Both the position numbers and the translations under genes were made by a program. From Bacteroidales bacterium (GTDB taxonomy: Bacteria > Bacteroidota > Bacteroidia > Bacteroidales > JAADJA01): a DNA stretch of 64,000 bases. The stretch is taken from the NCBI GenBank assembly GCA_030596605.1, contig JAUVJI010000002.1, positions 2,904 through 66,903 of the forward strand, written 5' to 3'. The number at the start of each line of letters is the position of its first letter. The stretch's first letter is position 1. This document shows, in pieces, positions 2,064 through 48,034 of the stretch. The notes under the pieces were generated by a model, which was given only the letters and a program-made list of their open reading frames with translations, was not told where the DNA came from and ran no database searches.

Positions 2064-2561
2064 ATGGAGAGAATCATTATCATAGATGATATGAACTGCA
2101 AGAAAGGCCTTCAGGAATTCCTTGAAGCCAATAAGGAGCATATTCGATACAGCACAACGATTGACAACTTAAAAAATACAACAAAGTTTTTCATTGATGA
2201 ATTAACCGGTAATTATGAATCCGAAAACAAGCTCGCTGTAAATACCGACAAACAAATCAATATCATCCATACCCATGAAATAATTTACCTTGAAGCATCA
2301 GGCAAAAAAACTAAACTACATCTGAGTAATAATAAATGTGTTGAAGCAATAAACAGTATCGATTCTTACGGCAAAAAGCTTATTAGTGCAAATTTCATAA
2401 GAGTCCACGAACAATATATTGTAAACCTTGAGTATTTCTCAAAATTCAATTTTAAAAATAAACTGGAACTTGAACTCCACAATGGGATTACCATTCCAGT
2501 TGATACTAATAAAAAAGACTTACTAATAAATTATATTGAAAACATAAGTGATAAAATTTAA
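2064..2561 (+). CDS. LytTR-domain DNA-binding regulator with truncated or degenerate receiver remnant
   Basis: The C-terminal ~100 aa (IIHTHEIIYLEASGKKTKLHL...FIRVHEQYIVNLEYF...ITIPV) has the LytTR pattern. The N-terminal ~60 aa starts like a receiver (RIIIIDD) but is far too short for a full REC domain. No histidine kinase gene is present in the window. Confidence 0.75.
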   Translation: MERIIIIDDMNCKKGLQEFLEANKEHIRYSTTIDNLKNTTKFFIDELTGNYESENKLAVNTDKQINIIHTHEIIYLEASGKKTKLHLSNNKCVEAINSIDSYGKKLISANFIRVHEQYIVNLEYFSKFNFKNKLELELHNGITIPVDTNKKDLLINYIENISDKI

Positions 2562-11608: not shown

Positions 11609-11650
11609 TCGCAAATAATAATCCAACCCCGGCAAATAATAATTCATGTC
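11609..11650 (+). repeat. GCAAATAATAATCCAA-CCCCGG-CAAATAATAATTC motif pair upstream of the 11749 gene
   Basis: CTTCGCAAATAATAATCCAACCCCGGCAAATAATAATTCATG belongs to the same family as 1963-2016, 11493-11510, 17341-17358 and 18551-18567. Confidence 0.45.
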
Positions 11651-20509: not shown

Positions 20510-20610
20510 AGTACTGATTTTTAATTATTTAATTATTAATTTATAAATCATTAAATGTTTGTTGCAAGTTTAACGATAAAGATAGCCAAAATTATAAAAA
20601 ATCCTGAAAT

Positions 20611-20646
20611 AAACCAGCTAACGGTAAAATCAAATCAGTTAACGGT
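20611..20646 (-). promoter_or_regulatory. Candidate LytTR-type operator upstream of P1 (two 15-mers, 21-bp register)
   Basis: Gene-strand sequence: ACCGTTAACTGATTT (exact, 20632-20646), then ACCGTTAGCTGGTTT (20611-20625). Lies 102-137 nt upstream of the start codon. Confidence 0.6.
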
Positions 20647-24625: not shown

Positions 24626-24719
24626 GTCATTTGATATTGTAAATGCAAGAGTTAATCAGTTTGTGGTAAGTTACCCCCTCCCTTTCTCCCCCCCTGGAGG
24701 GGGAGGGTTGGGGTGGGGG

Positions 24720-26670: not shown

Positions 26671-26706
26671 AAATCAGTTAACGGTGGGGAAAAGTAAGAA
26701 TTCGGT
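26671..26706 (-). promoter_or_regulatory. Candidate LytTR-type operator upstream of P4
   Basis: Gene-strand sequence: a degenerate ACCGAATTCTTACTT (26692-26706), then an exact ACCGTTAACTGATTT (26671-26685) 21 bp away. The proximal copy ends 27 nt before a TATATTTG -7-box-like element. Confidence 0.55.
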
Positions 26707-28983: not shown

Positions 28984-29019
28984 AAATCAGTTAACGGTTG
29001 AAATAAATCAGTTAACGGT
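28984..29019 (-). promoter_or_regulatory. Candidate LytTR-type operator upstream of P5 (two exact 15-mers)
   Basis: AAATCAGTTAACGGT occurs at 28984-28998 and 29005-29019 on the plus strand. This is ACCGTTAACTGATTT twice on the gene strand, with starts 21 bp apart. The proximal copy ends 26 nt before TAAATTTG. Confidence 0.65.
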
Positions 29020-29212: not shown

Positions 29213-30685
29213 ATGTCGTTATCTTTGCGATTAACTTATTGGAGAATTTATAATTTGGTGAAAAAAGTATACCTGTTAGTAATAAAATCTTACCTCGGGC
29301 CATTGGTCATGACCTTTTTTATATCATTGTTTATCCTTCTGATGCAATTTTTATGGAAGTATATTGATGATCTGGTGGGAAAAGGACTTGAATGGTACAT
29401 CATAGCAGAGCTTTTATTTTATGCATCATCTACTTTTGTTCCGCTAGCACTTCCACTGGCCATTTTGCTTTCATCACTAATGACTTTTGGGAATCTTGGT
29501 GAACATTATGAACTGGTTGCCATGAAGGCCGCCGGTATTTCATTAAGGAGAATTATGCTCCCGCTTATTATTATGTCAATTTTTATAAGTGGTATTGCCT
29601 TTTATTTTTCTAATAATGTACTACCCATTGCCAATTTGAAATTCAAATCATTACTTTATGATGTAAGGGAACAAAAACTTGCCCTGGATATTAAGGAGGG
29701 TGTTTTTTATACCGGAATTGATGGATTTGTCATCAGGGTTGGTAAAAAGGATAAAGACGACCAAACCATAAGGGATGTGATGATTTATGACCACAGGAGT
29801 AAAAAAGGAAATGTAAATTTAACTGTGGCTGATTCAGGAAGAATGGAACTTACTTCCGATGGTTTAAACCTAGTATTTATGCTTTACAATGGATTCAATT
29901 ATTTGGAAAAGACCGATCAGAAGAATTATAAAAAAACCAATCCTTATCAAAGAACTAAATTCAGAGAGGAAATACGTAAATTTAATTTGATGGACTTTGA
30001 ATTAGAACGAACTAACGAAGATCTCTTTAAGAGTAATTATTCAATGCTTAATTTGCGTCAGTTGAGGAATGCAGAAGATTCATTGATTGCCCAGATAAAC
30101 GAAAAAAAAGACAAAAACCCTGCTTCAACCCTGAATAAATTCAATTTCTATTCTAAAATAGATTCAAGTAAATTAGTAAGCTTTGAATCAGACAAACCTT
30201 ATATTACAGATCTATTACAAGAGTTTAAGGATTATGAAAAGGTTAATATCATTGAGGAGGCAACAAACAGGCTAAGAAGGGACCGACAAACTTTACAGAA
30301 TCATAAAACGGAAATCGAACTCAAAAAAAAGCTGGTTTTCAGGCATCAGGCTGAGTGGCACAGAAAATTTACTCTCTCATTTGCCTGCTTTGTCCTGTTT
30401 TTCATCGGCGCCCCCCTTGGCGCCATCATTCGACGAGGAGGATTAGGATTACCGGTTGTAGTTTCTGTATTATTTTTTGTATTGTTCCACATCATTTCAA
30501 TTACAGGCGAAAAATCTGTAAAATCGGGTGTAGTTGATGCAAACATAGGCATGTGGATCGCTCCGGTTGTCCTCTTGCCTTTAGGGATATTCCTTACAAT
30601 AAAAGCCACAACCGATTCACCAATTCTGGATGCTGACTCATGGATAAAGATGTATAGCAGGATTTTTAAAAAAAGAATGGATTGA
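29213..30685 (+). CDS. LptF/LptG (YjgP/YjgQ) family permease
   Basis: Family-typical N-terminus ...IKSYLGPLVMTFF...LMQFLW.YIDDLVGKGL and MKAAGISLRRIMLPLII. A large periplasmic loop is followed by C-terminal TM helices. The true start may be internal, near 29255-29270. Confidence 0.75.
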   Translation: MSLSLRLTYWRIYNLVKKVYLLVIKSYLGPLVMTFFISLFILLMQFLWKYIDDLVGKGLEWYIIAELLFYASSTFVPLALPLAILLSSLMTFGNLGEHYELVAMKAAGISLRRIMLPLIIMSIFISGIAFYFSNNVLPIANLKFKSLLYDVREQKLALDIKEGVFYTGIDGFVIRVGKKDKDDQTIRDVMIYDHRSKKGNVNLTVADSGRMELTSDGLNLVFMLYNGFNYLEKTDQKNYKKTNPYQRTKFREEIRKFNLMDFELERTNEDLFKSNYSMLNLRQLRNAEDSLIAQINEKKDKNPASTLNKFNFYSKIDSSKLVSFESDKPYITDLLQEFKDYEKVNIIEEATNRLRRDRQTLQNHKTEIELKKKLVFRHQAEWHRKFTLSFACFVLFFIGAPLGAIIRRGGLGLPVVVSVLFFVLFHIISITGEKSVKSGVVDANIGMWIAPVVLLPLGIFLTIKATTDSPILDADSWIKMYSRIFKKRMD

Positions 30686-38661: not shown

Positions 38662-41600
38662 ATGAGAAAATTTACTCTTTTTATTGCATTTTTATTTTTT
38701 GTAGGGATGCAAGTTTTACAAGCTCAAGACAGGGAAATAACGGGTACTGTCACCAATCCGGATGACGGTCAACCTATCCCTGGCGTTCAGGTTGTTGTTA
38801 AAGGTACCACAGTAGGTACTGTAACCGACCTCAACGGTAATTATTCACTAAACGTTCCGCCCAGTGCAGAAATTCTGGTATTTAAATATATCGGGTTCCA
38901 GGAACAGGAGATCACTATTGGAGACCAGAAGTCTATTAACGTCGAATTATCGGAGAGTATGACGGCCCTGGATGAAATTGTTGTCACCGCGCTGGGTGTC
39001 ACAAGGGAGAAAAAGGCCCTTGGCTACTCTGTGCAGGATGTTAGCGGCGATGAAATTAATAAGGCACGCACGCCGGATGTAATCAACAGTCTGTCAGGTA
39101 AAGTATCAGGCATTCAAGTTACATCCTCCGGAAATCTTGGTGGTTCATCAAGGATCCTTATCAGGGGAGCTTCATCAATTACCGGTGAAAATCAGCCACT
39201 GTTTGTTGTGGATGGTGTTCCTGTTGATAATGCTAATTATTCGGAGGCTAATACAAATAGAGGCGCCGGTGGTTATGACTACGGATCAATGGGATCCGAC
39301 ATTAACCCGGATGACGTTGAATCTGTTTCCATACTAAAAGGTCCTGCCGCATCTGCACTTTATGGCTCCAGAGCAGCCAATGGTGTTATCCTCATTACTA
39401 CCAAAAAAGGTAAAGTGAGTACAAAAGAAGGTAAAAGAGGAATAGGCGTTAGCTATAATTTCGGGTATACCTGGGAAACTCCTGCTATTTTACCTGAGTA
39501 CCAAAATGAGTATGGCGGAGGATATGGATTTGATACTTTATGGGCACAGCCGAACGATCCCGATTGGATGGCAAAATATATGCCCAATGGTAGTGGCCAT
39601 TACACTGCGCCTAATGGACAAACATATGACTTAATGGCTCAATATGCTGTTGATGAAAGCTGGGGACCGAAATTGGAAGGACAAATGTACCGCCCCTGGT
39701 ACTCATATGAACCTCAAATCGGTGAATATTTCGGAGCAAGTGTTCCCTGGGAGGCACATCCTGATAATGTAAAAGATTTCTATCAAACCGGCCACACCAT
39801 GACCAATAATGTTGCTTTGACCGGTGGTAGTGAAACTGCATTCTTCAGGTTGTCATATACCAATCTGAAACAACAGGGCATCATGCCTAACAGCGAGTTG
39901 AAAAAGAACACGATAAATTTTAACGGTTCAACTAAACTTGGAAAAAAACTCACTGCATTTACAAGCATTAATTATGTAAATCAAGCAGCTACAGGCAGGC
40001 CAAAAACAGGTTACGACGGTGATAACGTTATACAACAGTTTAATCAGTGGAGCCAGCGTCAGTGGGATCAGGAGGTCATGGAAGAGTACTGGCAGAATCC
40101 TGATGGAACTCAAAATACATGGAACAGAACATCTTATAGCAATGCATTTCCAAAATATACTGATAACCCGTATTGGACCAGGTATATGAATTACCAAAAT
40201 GATGGTCGCGACAGGTTATACGGTAACGTTGGTTTAACTTACCAGTTACTTGACTGGCTATCGGTTACAGGAAGATATGGACTGGATACTTATACTGACA
40301 GGAGAGAGGAAAGAATTGCAGTAGGTTCCAATAATATTTCGGAATATATGGAAGCCATCAGGACATTTTCAGAAAGCAATATGGAATTCTTAGTCCAGGC
40401 TAAAAAGAATTTAACTGAAGATCTTTCATTAGAAGTTGACTTTGGCGGTAACCGCAGAACAAATATTTATCAGCGGAATCAAGGAAGTACAAATGGTGGA
40501 CTGCCAATTCCTGAATTTTACAGCCTTACCAATACCACCAACCCGATAAGTGTTATTGATTATAAAGAAAAATACCAGGTTAACAGTTTATATGGAAGGG
40601 TATCTTTCGGATTTATGAGTATGTTATACTTAGATGTTACATTGCGTAACGACTGGTCATCAACATTACCCGAAGATAATAATTCCTATTTGTACCCATC
40701 AGTAAACTTTAGTTATGTATTCTCAGAAACACCCGGATTAGAAAGCCTGGATTGGCTTTCTCTCGGTAAAATCAGGTTTGGCTGGGCACAGGTAGGTAAC
40801 GATACCGATCCTTATCGTATTTACGGCACATATCGTGGTAAGGAGAATTTCGGAACAAACCCGGTTTATACAGTTCCTAATCCACTCAATAATGATGATC
40901 TGAAACCTGAAAAAACAACTTCATGGGAAGTTGGTGCCAATTTGGTATTCTTTAAAAATAACAGGTTAGGATTGGATATTACCTATTACGACATGAAAAC
41001 TGTTGACCTTATCTTCCCTGTAACCCTTTCAGGCGCTACAGGTTATCAGTCCACGATCATAAATGCGGGAGAGATGACAAACAAAGGTATTGAAGTGTTA
41101 TTAACAGGGTCACCGGTAAAAAATAAAAATTTCACCTGGGACATCATCGTGAACTGGGCAAAAAATAACAACAAACTTGTTGAACTGGACGAAGGTATTG
41201 ATAACTTACGTTTGGCAAATGCACCTTTCTCTGTATCTGTTAATGCTTTTGTTGGCGATCCTTATGGAACAATATTAGGATATGATTATACAATGGTTGA
41301 TGGCGAAAGATTGGTTGGCGCAAACGGAATGTATACCCGTTCTGACGAGATTGTACCCATAGGTACTGTTCAACCGGATTGGACAGGAGGTCTTGCAAAC
41401 AGCTTTACCTATAAAAACTGGAATTTGTACTTTTTGTTTGATATGAGGCAAGGTGGCCAGGTTTTCTACACATCTTACATGTGGGGTATGTACAGCGGTA
41501 TGTTAGAAGAAACTGTTGAAGACAATATCCGTGAGGATGGAATCGTACTCGAAGGAGTGATGGAAGATCCGAATAACCCCGGAACTTATATTACCAATAC

Positions 41601-41910
41601 TACTGTTCTCGATGCCGGAACTTATGGCTTGAACCACTACTATGTTAATTCCATGAATGTTTTTGATGCCGATTATATCAAACTTCGTGAGCTAAGTTTA
41701 GCATATACTTTACCAAATAAAGTATTGGAAAATACTCCCTTTACCAACTTAAGGATTGCTTTTATAGCTCGTAACTTATGGACATTTGGAACAGATATCA
41801 AGCATTTTGATCCTGAGCATGTTACCAACTCAGGTAATGTACAGGGTATTGAAGGAGGTCAGGTTCCAAGTACAAAGTCATACGGTCTCAATTTAAATGT
41901 TAATTTTTAA
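38662..41910 (+). CDS. SusC/RagA family TonB-dependent outer-membrane receptor
   Basis: Signal peptide. A carboxypeptidase-regulatory-like N-domain (ITGTVTNPDDGQPIPGVQVVVKGTTVGTVTDLNGNYSL). A plug domain (DEIVVTALGV...GASSI...PLFVVDGVP) and a long beta-barrel ending ...YGLNLNVNF. No STN/anti-sigma signalling extension. Confidence 0.92.
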   Translation: MRKFTLFIAFLFFVGMQVLQAQDREITGTVTNPDDGQPIPGVQVVVKGTTVGTVTDLNGNYSLNVPPSAEILVFKYIGFQEQEITIGDQKSINVELSESMTALDEIVVTALGVTREKKALGYSVQDVSGDEINKARTPDVINSLSGKVSGIQVTSSGNLGGSSRILIRGASSITGENQPLFVVDGVPVDNANYSEANTNRGAGGYDYGSMGSDINPDDVESVSILKGPAASALYGSRAANGVILITTKKGKVSTKEGKRGIGVSYNFGYTWETPAILPEYQNEYGGGYGFDTLWAQPNDPDWMAKYMPNGSGHYTAPNGQTYDLMAQYAVDESWGPKLEGQMYRPWYSYEPQIGEYFGASVPWEAHPDNVKDFYQTGHTMTNNVALTGGSETAFFRLSYTNLKQQGIMPNSELKKNTINFNGSTKLGKKLTAFTSINYVNQAATGRPKTGYDGDNVIQQFNQWSQRQWDQEVMEEYWQNPDGTQNTWNRTSYSNAFPKYTDNPYWTRYMNYQNDGRDRLYGNVGLTYQLLDWLSVTGRYGLDTYTDRREERIAVGSNNISEYMEAIRTFSESNMEFLVQAKKNLTEDLSLEVDFGGNRRTNIYQRNQGSTNGGLPIPEFYSLTNTTNPISVIDYKEKYQVNSLYGRVSFGFMSMLYLDVTLRNDWSSTLPEDNNSYLYPSVNFSYVFSETPGLESLDWLSLGKIRFGWAQVGNDTDPYRIYGTYRGKENFGTNPVYTVPNPLNNDDLKPEKTTSWEVGANLVFFKNNRLGLDITYYDMKTVDLIFPVTLSGATGYQSTIINAGEMTNKGIEVLLTGSPVKNKNFTWDIIVNWAKNNNKLVELDEGIDNLRLANAPFSVSVNAFVGDPYGTILGYDYTMVDGERLVGANGMYTRSDEIVPIGTVQPDWTGGLANSFTYKNWNLYFLFDMRQGGQVFYTSYMWGMYSGMLEETVEDNIREDGIVLEGVMEDPNNPGTYITNTTVLDAGTYGLNHYYVNSMNVFDADYIKLRELSLAYTLPNKVLENTPFTNLRIAFIARNLWTFGTDIKHFDPEHVTNSGNVQGIEGGQVPSTKSYGLNLNVNF

Positions 41911-41931: not shown

Positions 41932-43557
41932 ATGAAAACAATGAAAATATCAAATAAAAAGATAATTGGATTTGGATTTGTGCTGCTCTTCCTTGTATTT
42001 GGTTGTACGAAGAACTTTGAAGAGTTGAATGTAAATCCAAATGAACCTGTTGAAGTTCCTACATCGTACTTGCTAACTGATGGCCAGAAAGGTTTAATGT
42101 CATTTGTATGGGATGAATGGTGGAATGGCCGTTTTGGAATGTTATATTCACAATACTGGTCACAAGCATCCTATACAGATGAAAGCAGGTTTAAGCCCAG
42201 GGAAGGTGTTAACAATAACTACTGGATTTATTTTTATGCAGGCCGAGATGTAAATCCACCCGATGGTGAATTGAATGGTGGAGGCATGATGAGCCTGCAG
42301 CGAATCATAGAGTTAAATGAAGACCCTGAAACTGCAACAAAAGCATCTGTTTACGGTTCAAACAATAACCAGATCGCTGTTGCCAGGATATTAAAAGCAT
42401 GGATGTTCCAGATGTTAACGGATATCTGGGGATATATCCCTTATTCTCAGGCTTTAAATATTGCAGAGTATACGCTCCCGGCCTATGACAGCCAGGAGGA
42501 TATTTATTATGCACTTCTTGATGAACTTACAGCAGCTGTTGATCAGATAGATGACGGTGCAGGCCCTTCGGGAGATATGATTTATGGTGGCAATATGGCT
42601 AAATGGAAAATGTTTGCCAACTCCCTGAAATTGAGGATTGCTATAAGAATGTCTAAAGTAGCTCCAGGCGATGCAACAGCAGCAATTAATGACGCTGTGG
42701 CATCAGGAGTATTTGAAAGCAATGCTGATAACGCACAGTTAATATTCGAAATGGGGAAACCTAATAACAATCCATTGAACGAAAACCAGAAAACACGTTC
42801 GGATTTTGGAGTAAGTAAAACATTTATTGATTTTCTGTTAGCTCATAACGATCCGAGAATTGATTTTTATGCCAATAAACCGCTTAATAATACTGAGCAT
42901 GTTGGTTTTCCTTATGGGATGACAAATGGCGATGCAACACCAATTCTTGTTGATGAAGTGTCGATGCCGGGCAATGTTATATATGCACCCCAGGCACCGG
43001 GATTCTATATGAACTATGCTGAAGTATGTTTTATAATGGCAGAAATCGGTAATGATCAGGTATGGTATGAGAAAGGAATAGAAGCATCTATGAACATGTG
43101 GAATGACATTCTATCCACGACACCTACCGGATGGTACAGGATTGATAATAATCCTACTGATGTATTGCCAGCTCCTATTGACCAAACAGCTATTGATACA
43201 TATAAAGCCGATCCGATGGTAGCATGGGGTGGCGGTGTAGATCAATCAAAACTGATTGCCGAGCAAAAATATATTGCATTGTATCCCCAGGGATTACAAG
43301 CATGGTTTGAGTGGCGCAGAACCGGTTATCCGGAAGAACTGATAAAAGTAGGAGATGTTATTACCTATACAGTTGGCGCTGTTTCAGGAGAATATGAATT
43401 CACCTCATTGGCTCCAGCTCCAATAACAGCCGGAATTCCTGTAAGGATGACTTACCCGACAGACGAGCAAACACTGAATGGAAGCAGCAATGCCGATGCT
43501 GTGACCGCTCAGGGTGAAGACTACTTTAACACCAGGACATGGTGGGATATTGACTAA
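41932..43557 (+). CDS. SusD/RagB family nutrient-binding lipoprotein
   Basis: Lies immediately downstream of SusC. Lipoprotein signal ...LLFLVFGCTKNFEELNVNPN. A C-terminal W.EWRRTGYPE motif is typical of SusD-like proteins. Confidence 0.88.
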   Translation: MKTMKISNKKIIGFGFVLLFLVFGCTKNFEELNVNPNEPVEVPTSYLLTDGQKGLMSFVWDEWWNGRFGMLYSQYWSQASYTDESRFKPREGVNNNYWIYFYAGRDVNPPDGELNGGGMMSLQRIIELNEDPETATKASVYGSNNNQIAVARILKAWMFQMLTDIWGYIPYSQALNIAEYTLPAYDSQEDIYYALLDELTAAVDQIDDGAGPSGDMIYGGNMAKWKMFANSLKLRIAIRMSKVAPGDATAAINDAVASGVFESNADNAQLIFEMGKPNNNPLNENQKTRSDFGVSKTFIDFLLAHNDPRIDFYANKPLNNTEHVGFPYGMTNGDATPILVDEVSMPGNVIYAPQAPGFYMNYAEVCFIMAEIGNDQVWYEKGIEASMNMWNDILSTTPTGWYRIDNNPTDVLPAPIDQTAIDTYKADPMVAWGGGVDQSKLIAEQKYIALYPQGLQAWFEWRRTGYPEELIKVGDVITYTVGAVSGEYEFTSLAPAPITAGIPVRMTYPTDEQTLNGSSNADAVTAQGEDYFNTRTWWDID

Positions 43558-43636: not shown

Positions 43637-44890
43637 ATGAGGTTAGTATTAGTAGCATTTTCGGTTTTATTATTATCAATTACCGGCCTTTGCCAACGTG
43701 AACAGGCAACAGGTAAAACCGTTCCCGTTATGAGCCTTTATGACCTGGGCAGGGTGGGTTATGATCTCGCTGATAAGAAAAACCTGATTTATGATACAAC
43801 CTACATTCCTTACTGGATTGAAAAATATACTGATTCGATTATATCAACCAATCAATTTGCTTCACTTTATCCGGAAAGTGAAATCCTGGATGAAGAAATA
43901 ACAATTATACCACCTGATTTAGATGATGCTATTGATGCAATAGTGATCATGTGGTATTTACAAAATCTATCATCATCAGAAGGGATCGTTAATTTGATGA
44001 TATTAACATTAAACACCGATTCACTTATTTATTATCATACCGATATAAATAATAATCGAAACTTCAACGATGATGGACCGCCGTTTACTTTCACCGATAA
44101 ACAGCGGGATAAGCTTATCACCATTATTGACAACAATACTGTATATGAATTTCAGGTTAATAACATTAGCTATAAAGCTTCCGGATATTATTCACTGAAG
44201 CCTGGTGAAAAAGACTTTATCTGGAAATTCAATGATAAAAAACCTTCTCTATCTTTTTCCTTCTCTATATCCACCGGAAAAGGAGATCCTGAAATGCACT
44301 ATAGTCCAAGATCACCTTCTGATACAACAGAAGTAGTTTACACTTGCTCTGTTTTTTCTTCTTTCAATTTTGAATCCTTACTTGGTGTTTCGTACTACAG
44401 GTTTTATTTAAACCTGTTTGTTGCTTATGAAAAAGAAGAAACCGGATCAAATTTCGAATACATATATATCAACAAACCTGAATCGAATGATATCGAAAAA
44501 AGACATCGTACAAATACCGGGGCATGGCCGGAGTATAAGCTATTCTACGGAGGATTACTTGCTTATGATATACCGATCTTCAGACCTTTTAGAATATCCC
44601 CATATATTGGAATTGGCAGTTGGATATATTTAAAAGATCATCCCTTTTTGAAAAGAGATGACTATGAAAATAGATACATTGATGAATATTTTAAAAACAA
44701 GATCTATTATACCTTTGGTCTTGATTTAAAATACCTGCTTTCAAAAAAAAGTACATTATTCGTTCATTCAGGCTATAAAATGCTAAAGTACGATGCCTCA
44801 GAATATTTTATTAATGCAGACCCACAATCATTTGAATTAAAATACGACTTGTGGTATATAGGAGCCGGGGTCTCATTTCGGTTAAATTAA
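43637..44890 (+). CDS. Hypothetical secreted or outer-membrane protein (beta-barrel-like C-terminus)
   Basis: The start at 43637 (MRLVLVAFSVLLLSITGLCQ) lies after the SusD terminator hairpin. Earlier in-frame starts overlap SusD or the hairpin. The C-terminal alternating pattern ends ...YIGAGVSFRLN. Confidence 0.6.
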   Translation: MRLVLVAFSVLLLSITGLCQREQATGKTVPVMSLYDLGRVGYDLADKKNLIYDTTYIPYWIEKYTDSIISTNQFASLYPESEILDEEITIIPPDLDDAIDAIVIMWYLQNLSSSEGIVNLMILTLNTDSLIYYHTDINNNRNFNDDGPPFTFTDKQRDKLITIIDNNTVYEFQVNNISYKASGYYSLKPGEKDFIWKFNDKKPSLSFSFSISTGKGDPEMHYSPRSPSDTTEVVYTCSVFSSFNFESLLGVSYYRFYLNLFVAYEKEETGSNFEYIYINKPESNDIEKRHRTNTGAWPEYKLFYGGLLAYDIPIFRPFRISPYIGIGSWIYLKDHPFLKRDDYENRYIDEYFKNKIYYTFGLDLKYLLSKKSTLFVHSGYKMLKYDASEYFINADPQSFELKYDLWYIGAGVSFRLN

Positions 44891-44949
44891 TAGACCTATA
44901 TACCCAATTTACTTTTTAACTTTTAACCTTATTCCCCCTTACTTAATTT

Positions 44950-44985
44950 ACCGTTAACTGATTTCATGCAACCGCTAACTTACTT
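44950..44985 (+). promoter_or_regulatory. Candidate LytTR-type operator upstream of P6
   Basis: ACCGTTAACTGATTT (44950-44964, exact) and ACCGCTAACTTACTT (44971-44985), 21-bp register. Lies 155-190 nt upstream of the start at 45140. Confidence 0.6.
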
Positions 44986-45139
44986 GGTCTTGTTTTTTAA
45001 TTTCAATTTATGTAATTTGCGATGTTTTTAAATTTAGAGTTGTAATGTATATTAATTAAGTATTTTTGTAATATTTAATTTACCTCTTAAATAGAAATTT
45101 ATAAAATAATAATTTGTTTAATTTTAAAAAAAATCAACT

Positions 45140-46993
45140 ATGAAGAAAATTTTACTTTTTGCAATCGTGTTAAGCTTTGGATTGTATGTTATTGCCCAGG
45201 AGAGGGCGGTAATTCCCAAAGCAAAAAGAGATGTTGCCGTTAAAAAACCGGCTAAACCAATTAAAGATGTAGGTAATACATTAGGAGAATATGTTCCGGG
45301 AATGAAAGGTGCGAGTTTATTGGAAGATGAGGAAATCGGTCAAACTATTTACGACCTGCAAACCAATGCATCAACACAAAACAGGTTATATCTGTATGAT
45401 GATGGATCAATAGGCGGTGCGTGGACTATGGGATTTGATAATCCCAATTTTTCACAAAGAGGAACCGGATACAATTATTATGATGGAAATAATTGGGGAC
45501 CTCCTCCGGCCGAAAAAATTGAACCCTATAAAACCGGATGGCCGTCGTATACACCCTATGGTGAAAATGGAGAAATGTTCGTATGCCATCATATGCTTGA
45601 CGGACTTGCATACGGCATCCGTGAAGAAAAAGGTACAGGAGACTGGACTATGGCTATTCAGGCTGGTCCTCCATCAGCAGTTGATATTTCCTGGCCACGT
45701 GGTATAACTACCGGACCTACAAATAATATTATCCATTTTTTATCTGTTACCTATGCTACATATAATGGGCAGGATAATGCAGTATTGTATTCAAGGTCTC
45801 AAGATGGAGGCAGCACATGGGATATTGAGAATCACTTTTTTGATGAACTTGGTCCTGACAATTATACCAATTTTGGTGGAGATGTTTATGAATTTGCAGA
45901 GCCCAAAGATGGTATTCTTGCTTTCCTCGCAGGAGAGGCATGGACAGACCTGGTATTGATGAAATCAACAAATGATGGAGATACATGGGAACAAACTATC
46001 ATCTGGGAGTGTCCATATCCGTTGCATGTTACCGGAGAAGTAACAGATACATTTTATACTTGCGACGGATCGCATCATCTCGCCATTGATAATTCCGGAT
46101 TGATCCATGTAGTTTTTGGGATCAACAGGTCAGTTGCTGATGAAGGCGGTGAATACTGGTTCCCGGGTGTTGATGGTGTTGCATACTGGAATGAAAATAT
46201 GCCGGCTTTCTCAGATGACATGGATGCATTGTGCCCTTATGACGATTGTGGTTATTCTGAACTTGTTGAAGATTACAACCTTATTGGATGGTCGCAGGAT
46301 ATCAATGGTAACGGGCAATTAGACATTCTGGATGACTGGGGGACATACTATCTCGGACTGTCCAGTATGGTGCAGATCAGCATTGATGAGCTAAATCAAA
46401 TATTTGTAGTTTACTCATCTGTGACCGAAACATATGATAACGGAACTCAAAGTTACCGCCATGTGTGGACAAGGACTTCCCCCGATGGCGGCACCTCATG
46501 GGGCACATTTTATGATTTAAACAGCGACTTGATCTATATTTTTGATGAGTGTGTATTTCCGTCTATTGCAGCTAATTCTGACGAAAACATCTATTTCATT
46601 TACCAGGCTGATACTGAACCAGGGCTTGCAGTTAGGGGAGATGAAGATCCTTATGGCGATAATTTCATTAGGGTGATGAATGTTTTGAAAGAGGATATTA
46701 TCAACGCTGTGGATGAAAACCAACAGTTGATCAAAAACGAAAATGTATCCCAGAATTATCCCAATCCTTTTAATGAAACATCAACTGTTTATGTTTTATT
46801 AGATGAACCGGCCAGTCTTAGCCTCGAAGTTCATAATTTAATGGGCCAGTTGATATACTCAATTCCTGAAAGGCCATACAACACCGGTAAAGTTGAATTC
46901 ATGATCGATGGATCAGGATTAACTTCAGGCATTTATTTTTATTCTGTTAAAGCAGGAGAAACTGCTGTAACAAAGAAAATGATTATTGAGTAG
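45140..46993 (+). CDS. Asp-box (BNR) beta-propeller protein with T9SS CTD, paralog P6
   Basis: Collinear with P1-P5. Asp-boxes YSRSQDGGSTW and MKSTNDGDTW. Loop DINGNGQLDILDD. CTD YPNPFNETSTV...GIYFYSVKAGETAVTKKMIIE. Confidence 0.85.
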   Translation: MKKILLFAIVLSFGLYVIAQERAVIPKAKRDVAVKKPAKPIKDVGNTLGEYVPGMKGASLLEDEEIGQTIYDLQTNASTQNRLYLYDDGSIGGAWTMGFDNPNFSQRGTGYNYYDGNNWGPPPAEKIEPYKTGWPSYTPYGENGEMFVCHHMLDGLAYGIREEKGTGDWTMAIQAGPPSAVDISWPRGITTGPTNNIIHFLSVTYATYNGQDNAVLYSRSQDGGSTWDIENHFFDELGPDNYTNFGGDVYEFAEPKDGILAFLAGEAWTDLVLMKSTNDGDTWEQTIIWECPYPLHVTGEVTDTFYTCDGSHHLAIDNSGLIHVVFGINRSVADEGGEYWFPGVDGVAYWNENMPAFSDDMDALCPYDDCGYSELVEDYNLIGWSQDINGNGQLDILDDWGTYYLGLSSMVQISIDELNQIFVVYSSVTETYDNGTQSYRHVWTRTSPDGGTSWGTFYDLNSDLIYIFDECVFPSIAANSDENIYFIYQADTEPGLAVRGDEDPYGDNFIRVMNVLKEDIINAVDENQQLIKNENVSQNYPNPFNETSTVYVLLDEPASLSLEVHNLMGQLIYSIPERPYNTGKVEFMIDGSGLTSGIYFYSVKAGETAVTKKMIIE

Positions 46994-47122: not shown

Positions 47123-48034
47123 ATGATTGAAACAATTAAAATAGGGACACTACGATGGCATCATATTCTAAACCCCTCTGATGAAAACCTTGAATACCTC
47201 AAAGATAATTTCCATTTTCACCCCCTGGATATTGAAGACTGTAAAGAAGAATATAATCAGCGTCCTAAGGTTGATGTTTATGATGATTATTATTTTATGA
47301 TCTTGCACTTTCCCTTTTTCGACCGTTATAATAAATTTCTCCGTACACGGGAAGTTAAAATTTTCTGGGGTGAGGATTATGTTATAACAATTGGAAAGTC
47401 GCATTGGGTGGTTACTGAAATGTTTAAGGAAGGCAAAGAACAGGAAGCCCAAAGTGAAACTTTTGAGATTGGGACCAGTGATGCATTACTCTATGCCATT
47501 TTGGAAAGGTTAATGAAAGCAACCCAGATAATCATCAAAAAAATTGGAGATGATGTGGATTCCATAAACCGTGCTTTATTTGATATAAAAGCAGAAAGAA
47601 CAATTGAAAAAATTTCAATCATCAGGAAAAACATTATCCTGCTCAACACCATGTTTAAACCCCAGCTTCCTTTATTAGCAAGGTTTGAATCAGGGCAAAT
47701 TGAAGGATATGCCAACAACATGGAAGATTACTGGGGCAATATCCTCGACTATTACAAACAAATGTGGGATATGACTGAAGATTACGCCGAGTTGATCGAA
47801 GGTTTATCTCAAACGTTCGATTCATTACAGGCAAATCGTACCAACGAGATCATAAAAATCTTAACATTGATTTCCTCTATTCTGCTACCGTTAACCTTTT
47901 TAACCGGTTTGTACGGAATGAATGTCAATTTACCCCTTAAAGACGATCCGCGAGCTTTCTGGATTGTTATTGCAGCCATGCTTTTGATTGTTATAAGCAT
48001 GTACATTCTTTTTAAGCGAAAGAAATGGATGTAA
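47123..48034 (+). CDS. corA: CorA family magnesium/cobalt transporter
   Basis: Cytoplasmic N-domain plus two C-terminal TM helices with the signature LTGLYGMNVNLP (GMN motif). Confidence 0.85.
   Translation: MIETIKIGTLRWHHILNPSDENLEYLKDNFHFHPLDIEDCKEEYNQRPKVDVYDDYYFMILHFPFFDRYNKFLRTREVKIFWGEDYVITIGKSHWVVTEMFKEGKEQEAQSETFEIGTSDALLYAILERLMKATQIIIKKIGDDVDSINRALFDIKAERTIEKISIIRKNIILLNTMFKPQLPLLARFESGQIEGYANNMEDYWGNILDYYKQMWDMTEDYAELIEGLSQTFDSLQANRTNEIIKILTLISSILLPLTFLTGLYGMNVNLPLKDDPRAFWIVIAAMLLIVISMYILFKRKKWM

Follow-up and report, generated by a model that had tools for sequence, protein, structure and literature searches.

The question raised by this locus is whether a short tandem repeat in front of a gene for a secreted protein is a regulatory site and, if so, which protein would read it. 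The gene, P6, lies in a Bacteroidales assembly of 4.34 Mb in 218 contigs, of which the window, that is the whole 64,000-nucleotide stretch analysed here, represents C48:2904-66903. P6 encodes a 617-residue protein that has a signal peptide and, at its C-terminus, a type A sorting domain scoring above cut-off with both PF18962 (42.1 bits) and TIGR04183 (42.9 bits), and thus has the hallmarks of T9SS cargo. It is 50-57% identical to P1, P2, P3 and P5 and, in a separate alignment, 54% identical to P4. Searching solved structures by sequence returned the sorting domain as the sole match, so a fold search was needed: the AlphaFold model of P6 (mean pLDDT 85.6) resembles sialidase, GH145 (BT3686, BACCELL_00856) and PL42-type beta-propellers. 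The sequence-only reading had placed P6 about 16 kb from the tandem array on the opposite strand, and its distance to P5 is indeed 16.3 kb, with the two genes on opposite strands. On the 5' side P6 is preceded by a SusC-like gene (38662-41910), a SusD-like gene (41932-43557) and then an unannotated 458-aa ORF, and corA follows on the 3' side. The gene, the repeat before it and the related repeats of the window are as follows.

45140..46993, + strand: P6, sialidase/GH145-like beta-propeller with T9SS sorting domain (domain search, fold search), the predicted regulated gene
44950..44964, + strand: distal half-site ACCGTTAACTGATTT, exact consensus, 25.4 bits, at about -75 to -61 from the predicted transcription start
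44965..44970, + strand: 6-nt spacer CATGCA, identity at random level, not conserved
44971..44985, + strand: proximal half-site ACCGCTAACTTACTT, three mismatches, 16.6 bits, at about -54 to -40 from the predicted start
28984..29019, - strand: dyad upstream of P5, both halves exact
26671..26706, - strand: dyad upstream of P4, exact in the proximal half and degenerate in the distal one (ACCGAATTCTTACTT)
20611..20646, - strand: dyad upstream of P1

The starts of the two P6 half-sites are 21 bp apart, both half-sites lie on the P6 coding strand, and the dyad is located 154 nt before the ATG at 45140 (44945-44992 reads aatttACCGTTAACTGATTTcatgcaACCGCTAACTTACTTggtcttg). An exact site plus a degenerate copy in a 21-bp register, oriented with P6, had been proposed from the letters of this stretch, and this is what is seen at 44950-44964 and 44971-44985. 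The window contains five copies of the exact 15-mer, that of P6 and four upstream of P1, P4 and P5, where base composition leads one to expect an estimated 3e-4 copies; if up to three mismatches are allowed, 8 matches stand against an expected 3.0. Upstream of P3 is a lone half-site, ACCACAAACTGATTA (14.4 bits, 24653-24667, - strand), which has no partner 21 bp away and may be a decayed dyad. The promoter regions of P2 and P3 are homologous to each other, differ from the dyad type and contain a TATATTTG box.

Conservation of the motif was then set against that of its surroundings by anchoring the four upstream regions on the dyad and comparing P6 with P1, P4 and P5. Identity amounts to 0.87 in the distal half-site and 0.76 in the proximal half-site, as opposed to 0.33 in the 6-nt spacer and 0.28 and 0.31 in the two 50-nt blocks upstream, with 0.31 expected from base composition. 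In the 35 nt downstream of the dyad it rises to 0.48, because promoter elements sit there. When the P6 flanks were compared by blastn with the flanks of P1, P4 and P5, the dyad being masked, the result was short, AT-rich, off-register matches alone and no flank homology, the best match covering 28 nt at 82% identity and 19 nt out of register. The suggestion that the DNA upstream of P6 cannot be aligned to that of P1, P4 or P5 is thereby borne out, the 100 nt upstream being at 0.28-0.31 against a random 0.31, and the dyad-anchored alignment, in which homology of the whole upstream region at the level of the motif was looked for, did not return it. At other places of the genome, and in other families, the motif is found in front of unrelated genes, and it therefore was not carried along by duplication. 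That it is conserved on its own, as first proposed, agrees both with these values and with the orthologue footprint described below, and the comparisons support the P6 dyad as an independently selected cis-element.

P6 has many orthologues in uncultured Bacteroidales, which made possible the phylogenetic footprinting that the sequence-only reading had recommended. Eight orthologous loci (57-94% protein identity) were compared. All nine P6 loci (57-100% amino acid identity) keep a dyad in the 21-bp register, scoring 28.7-44.5 bits against a best score of 8.1 in 2,700 shuffles of the same P6 upstream regions, and the dyad lies 171-266 nt, mostly 185 to 195 nt, before the ATG. Pairwise identity of the upstream regions, anchored on the dyad, is 0.60-0.69 in the half-sites, 0.31-0.33 in the spacer and 0.27-0.28 in the 90 nt upstream, and reaches 0.48-0.51 in the -33 region and 0.53-0.57 in the -7 region. 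The distal half-site is kept in L002, L080 and L001. The proximal variant is conserved in orthologues as ACCGCTAACTTATTT and ACCATTAACTTACTT, and the very form that appears degenerate in the window, AACTTACTT, is itself retained in L080, L002 and L001. The strong and the weak half swap by lineage, the window having a strong distal and a weak proximal half and L081 the reverse, a pattern expected of selection on dimer occupancy and not on a particular sequence.

Gene order around P6 bears on the same point. The gene corA comes after P6 in five orthologue loci (L001 and L082-L085), and is downstream wherever sequence is available. The upstream neighbour varies: L084 and L085 have a SusD-like gene there, L002 has the 458-aa ORF, L080 and L082 have a P paralogue, L081 has an MG2 protein gene, L001 a divergent small gene and L083 an outer-membrane beta-barrel gene with the MG2 protein gene further upstream. 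The SusC/SusD neighbourhood that had been pointed out for P6 is thus present in the window, but what is conserved along with the site is the downstream corA instead. The dyad is kept for as long as the P6-corA synteny while the neighbouring DNA is randomised, and the P6 site gives the cleanest proof of a motif under its own selection. Two further observations concern the 3' side. CorA is 88% identical between two species (window 47123-48034 versus L001:2997-3905) and the adjoining P6 67%; judged from such comparisons, the predicted secreted propeller is evolving much faster than its housekeeping neighbour. A small gene of the bAvd / 23S_rRNA_IVP family lies directly 3' of P6 in three orthologue loci (L081:3757-4122, L082:3647-4012 and L084:3675-3944), in L082 and L084 between P6 and corA, and is absent from the 130-nt P6-corA gap of the window.

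The position of the dyad relative to a promoter was assessed on 74 unique dyads pooled from the source genome and other genomes. Information content reaches 2.5 bits per position in the half-sites and is mostly 0.1-0.2 in flanks and spacer. A TTG is found at offset 4 after the proximal half-site in 30 of the 74 dyads; the sequence TAnnTTTG begins at offset 26 or 27 in 25 of the 74, no other single offset accounting for more than two, and TAnnTTGY begins at offset 27 in four. TAnnTTTG is the sigma-A box of Flavobacterium, which occupies -12 to -5, the TAnnTTGY variant taking the same place (PMC9723704). At P6 the corresponding elements are the following.

44990..44992, + strand: TTG, candidate -33 element, 4 nt after the proximal half-site, conserved in alignment A1
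45013..45020, + strand: TAATTTGC, -7 box of TAnnTTGY type as defined in PMC9723704, at offset 27 after the dyad
45061..45068, + strand: TATTTTTG, second, consensus -7-like box, 75 nt after the dyad, present in L001 as TACTTTTG

L001 has TAGCTTGC at the offset of the P6 -7 box. From this arrangement we infer a P6 transcription start near 45025 and a 5' UTR of about 115 nt; the fixed distances of the -33 TTG and the -7 box put the dyad at about -75 to -40, an activator position, and immediately upstream of the predicted -33/-7 elements, as is the rule for LytTR sites. The predicted -7 box is non-consensus, as expected of an activator-dependent promoter. An earlier description of the repeat as an operator is best divided: a functional cis-element is supported, and it is better read as a LytTR-type upstream activator site in front of a -33/-7 promoter. 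The second box at 45061-45068 may represent a dyad-independent second promoter or lie within the 5' UTR, and since it is the better of the two -7 boxes and stands 75 nt past the dyad, the dyad-dependent promoter of P6 may not be its sole promoter. The length of the predicted 5' UTR (window 45030-45139) is conserved across P6 orthologues, and its conserved blocks in alignment A1 include the -7-like box at 45061-45068 and AAATAAT..TTTGTTTAATTT just before the start codon. P1 has a consensus -7 box, TAATTTTG (20590-20597, - strand), 16 nt after its dyad and so one helical turn nearer than the usual 26-27, next to a near-consensus TATCTTTA at the usual -7 offset. No terminator was found between the upstream ORF and the dyad in a scan of 44700-45250, and a sigma-70 scan of the same region returned one weak sigma-70-like site, a model that is not meaningful for Bacteroidota. 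An RNA element was also considered for 44700-45300 and rejected, as an Rfam scan gave no match.

LytTR-class two-component systems are abundant in Bacteroidota, and the spacing of the half-sites is of the kind that their regulators recognise. Genome-wide, 13 half-site pairs occur at offset 21 and two at all other offsets from 8 to 59 taken together. With a weight matrix, 21 dyads of at least 18 bits are found at offset 21, as compared with a mean of 0.44 and a maximum of 2 for offsets 10-44; the matrix was trained on the offset-21 dyads of the source genome, so that about 14 of these 21 are circular, the rest are new, and the scores are partly circular. LytTR sites consist of two repeats of 9-11 nt with an 11-13 nt spacer, and in the YpdB and YehT oligonucleotides these have a 21-bp period (PMC4847170). 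The present repeats start 21 bp apart in 13 of 15 pairs and are genomically linked to a regulator with receiver and LytTR domains. The conserved half-site, 15-16 bp, is longer than the 9-11 nt usually quoted.

Sixteen LytTR genes are found in the genome, one of which carries the dyad next to it. This candidate regulator (C123:31810-32559) has 249 residues, with a receiver (Response_reg, 79.6 bits) and a LytTR domain (63.4 bits) both above cut-off; searched against solved structures, it matched through its receiver domain alone. Just upstream is encoded a sensor kinase of 1059 residues with Reg_prop repeats, Y_Y_Y, His_kinase (PF06580) and an ATPase domain. Sixty-nine nucleotides past the stop codon of the regulator gene comes a dyad, and then a gene for a membrane protein of about 150 (148) residues. 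A search with the exact 36-bp pattern, in which 30 bases are fixed, of one genome for each species gave 22 loci in about 14 other MAGs, in seven of which the exact dyad directly follows a regulator orthologue (62-69% identity) and precedes the same small gene, with the kinase gene upstream of the regulator gene wherever sequence is available. In a further sample of 151 genomes, approximately one per family of the order, a dyad with up to three mismatches was found in 14 and the reversed control pattern in none. A protein at least 56% identical was counted as a regulator orthologue (paralogues within the source genome reach 45% at most); 11 of the 13 other dyad-positive genomes contain one, as do 10 of the 137 dyad-negative ones (Fisher p = 1.6e-9). 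These ten genomes have an orthologue and no dyad within three mismatches, and contain diverged dyads next to the regulator gene. Of 20 orthologues from 20 other families, 17 are followed within 1-200 nt of the stop codon by a dyad of at least 17 bits, including in genomes where the strict search gave none, and a small gene starting M[DE]DxIYIL usually comes after it.

The half-site varies by lineage, with ACTGGTT in G058 and GCCGAAAACTGAT in G136. The small target gene (L039:4735-5178, which is G000 C123:32734-33177) has orthologues in L008, L010, L016, L018, L019, L022 and L027. Its product of about 150 residues has no Pfam or NCBIfam match; its N-terminal helix (M[DE]DYIYILLxIAWIAFTIY) is followed by a Lys-rich stretch and a linker that is variable and acidic, and FD[LI]RKAVI[YF]SEILxRPY is conserved at the C-terminus.

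The genome's own paralogues served as a control. Four other LytTR regulator genes are followed, after a few to about 220 nt, by direct repeats of their own and of different sequence: TTTACCGGATATA on C11, TACGTTCAYTCC on C203, ATTCACTCATTCAT on C80 and GCAAATAATAAT on C94. Where such repeats have at least 11 of 12 matches their offset is exactly 21 every time, and altogether 5 of the 16 LytTR genes are followed by their own 21-bp dyad. This pattern of a regulator gene and then its own dyad implies that ACCGTTAACTGATTT belongs to the C123 regulator. With 16 LytTR genes present, synteny and co-occurrence are what this assignment draws on.

Taken together, we consider it probable that the 36-bp element at 44950-44985 is a tandem site for a LytTR response-regulator dimer, with the C123 protein as the candidate regulator, that it serves to activate P6, and that it belongs to a regulon of about 20 promoters. 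Other readers of the same DNA have to be weighed against this. A different LytTR protein, either the receiver-less 165-aa one encoded in the window (2064-2561) or one of the 14 others, comes to mind given 16 such genes in the genome and one within the window itself, but is improbable: recognisable homologues of the stand-alone protein (31-33% identity) occur in 2 of the 13 dyad-positive genomes, its gene is preceded by a different dyad, GCAAATAATAAT-N9-GCGAATAATAAT, that is linked to the C94 regulator, and the remaining paralogues, which adjoin repeats that differ, do not exceed 45% identity to the C123 regulator. Slightly less probable again is a regulator of the AraC/XylS type, with two helix-turn-helix motifs per monomer. 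XylS/AraC operators consist of 15-17-bp direct repeats with a 21-bp period that abut the promoter, so that on geometry a half-site of 15-16 bp with a 6-bp spacer next to a -33 element fits them equally well; yet the genome has four HTH_18 genes, none on a dyad-bearing contig, and no AraC-family gene is linked to a dyad, whereas the dyad is syntenic with the LytTR regulator in a sample of 20 other families and co-occurs with it, and paralogous LytTR genes carry 21-bp repeats of their own.

Finally, the element might be no regulator site at all but the -35/-10 elements of an ECF-type sigma factor, a dispersed repeat (REP, or a MITE fragment) or a relic copied with the gene. It is short, repeated across the genome and nearly always intergenic, as one would want for a reading of this sort, which we nevertheless regard as very improbable. 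Both halves are the same 15-mer, unlike a -35/-10 pair, and a separate -33/-7 promoter stands at a fixed distance; the flanks are at random identity, the element is co-oriented with the downstream gene and persists for the length of the P6-corA synteny amid randomised DNA, and the lack of an Rfam match counts here as well.

According to the LytTR reading, the kinase with Reg_prop, Y_Y_Y and His_kinase domains would be the partner of the C123 regulator. The phosphorylated regulator would then bind the two head-to-tail 15-bp half-sites, one 21-bp period apart and hence on the same helix face, so placing a dimer at about -75 to -40, right before the -33 TTG and the weak -7 box of a Bacteroidota promoter of sigma-A type, and would in this way activate transcription of P6. 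P6 would be one of about 20 promoters in the regulon, most of which would drive T9SS-secreted proteins, and the core target conserved in evolution would be the small membrane-protein gene directly after the regulator gene. What the analysis shows is the site with its register, its motif-specific conservation and its promoter geometry, the regulon and the genomic linkage to the regulator; that the regulator binds, that it activates and does not repress, where transcription starts and to what signal the system responds are inferences.

The predicted regulon was examined through the genes that follow the dyads. Nearly all dyads are intergenic and co-oriented with an ORF starting 39-231 nt downstream. 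A T9SS sorting domain, present in 259 ORFs or about 7% of the genes of the genome, is found in 14 of the 17 complete ORFs downstream of the top dyads (binomial p 2e-14, or about 5e-8 when collapsed to families). Among this cargo are the P propellers and a related PKD-bearing array on C122, two Peptidase_C10 proteins with an Inhibitor_I69 domain, a cadherin/Big_9 protein, an FG-GAP protein and a protein of 1142 residues with the sorting domain as its only Pfam domain. Dyad targets outside the cargo are a TonB-dependent receptor, a 500-aa protein and the small membrane protein. In G070, of the same genus, all three strict dyads precede T9SS cargo, including a P paralogue and an orthologue of the 1142-aa protein; in G095 and G024 the dyad likewise precedes T9SS cargo, and in G045 the targets are mostly non-cargo. 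The conserved core target thus appears to be the small membrane protein, perhaps together with the T9SS protein of about 1000 residues, and the propeller and peptidase promoters look like lineage-specific recruitments.

Among the nearest described systems is BtsS/BtsR (YehU/YehT) acting on the yjiY (btsT) site of E. coli. As here, a LytS-type kinase is combined with a LytTR regulator, and the YehT oligonucleotide contains a direct repeat with a 21-bp period, the halves of which, ACCGCTTA and ACCACTCA, show some resemblance to ACCGCTAA and ACCGTTAA, a likeness to be read with the absence of any universal consensus among LytTR sites (PMC4847170). BtsR is also the best NCBIfam match of the C123 regulator (5.9e-41). 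The match scores 140.4 bits, below the equivalog cut-off of 246, which makes the C123 regulator a relative of BtsR and not BtsR itself. The two systems differ in their sensors, a periplasmic Reg_prop/Y_Y_Y propeller here and a 5TM-Lyt domain in BtsS, in the conserved half-site, which is longer here (15-16 bp), and in their targets, being predicted secreted T9SS proteins and a small membrane protein here and a pyruvate transporter for BtsR.

AgrA repeats are 9 bp long with a spacer of 12-13 bp. At agr P2/P3 of Staphylococcus aureus a LytTR dimer occupies two direct repeats immediately upstream of AgrA's own promoters, which are suboptimal and activator-dependent, much as proposed here (PMC4227749). 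Phylum and promoter type differ (-33/-7 in the present case), the kinase here is not a peptide-pheromone HPK10, and the centre of the proximal repeat lies near -47 here as against about -60 for AgrA. In LytSR-lrgAB of Firmicutes the gene under control, for a small membrane protein, comes directly after those of the kinase and the LytTR regulator. The same order, histidine kinase, response regulator, dyad and 150-aa membrane protein, is conserved across the sampled families here, although the small protein, with its single N-terminal helix, is not similar to LrgA. PorXY-SigP of Porphyromonas gingivalis likewise ties two-component regulation to T9SS in Bacteroidota (PMC9723704), but PorX/SigP acts on secretion-machinery genes via an ECF sigma factor, while the regulon predicted here consists of cargo and would be controlled via a LytTR-type upstream site. 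A full-text literature search for LytTR with T9SS or with a Bacteroidetes regulon returned no description of the present system, nor a defined operator or regulon of any Bacteroidota LytTR system. The architecture as such is already known; in the literature searched, neither the regulon nor its connection with T9SS cargo nor the conserved small target gene is described.

What the analysis would provide is a precise DNA code, TACCGTTAACTGATTT twice, 21 bp apart and ending about 4 nt before a -33 TTG, that in uncultured Bacteroidales appears to connect one kinase/regulator pair to some 20 promoters, which would serve secreted enzymes and proteins that resemble adhesins. Such a code could be used in predicting co-regulated T9SS cargo in metagenome-assembled genomes, as a source of inducible promoters and in the search for the signal of the propeller sensor, and the placing of an operator just after the gene of its own regulator could help to find the motifs of many LytTR regulators in Bacteroidota. 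More tentatively, and with somewhat less than even confidence, we propose that Reg_prop/Y_Y_Y kinase, LytTR regulator, 21-bp dyad and small single-pass membrane protein may form an order-wide switch for T9SS cargo, to which cargo promoters, those of propellers, C10 peptidases and adhesin-like proteins, would have been recruited lineage by lineage via dyad gain, with the small protein as a conserved feedback or signalling partner of the kinase. If true, T9SS cargo, in contrast to the machinery, would here have its first defined cis-regulatory code.

The window contains, in addition, a second repeat with a 21-bp period, GCAAATAATAAT-N9-GC[A/G]AATAATAAT, at 1963-1995 and at 11611-11643, both on the + strand. 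One copy lies 69 nt before the stand-alone LytTR gene and a cohesin/dockerin operon, and the other 106 nt before the gene of a Fib_succ_major protein. The GCAAATAATAAT dyad is found again 49 nt past the stop codon of the C94 LytTR regulator gene (LytTR domain at 29260-29541), and to judge from these positions it looks like the mark of a second LytTR regulon that would cover the surface-assembly genes of the window.
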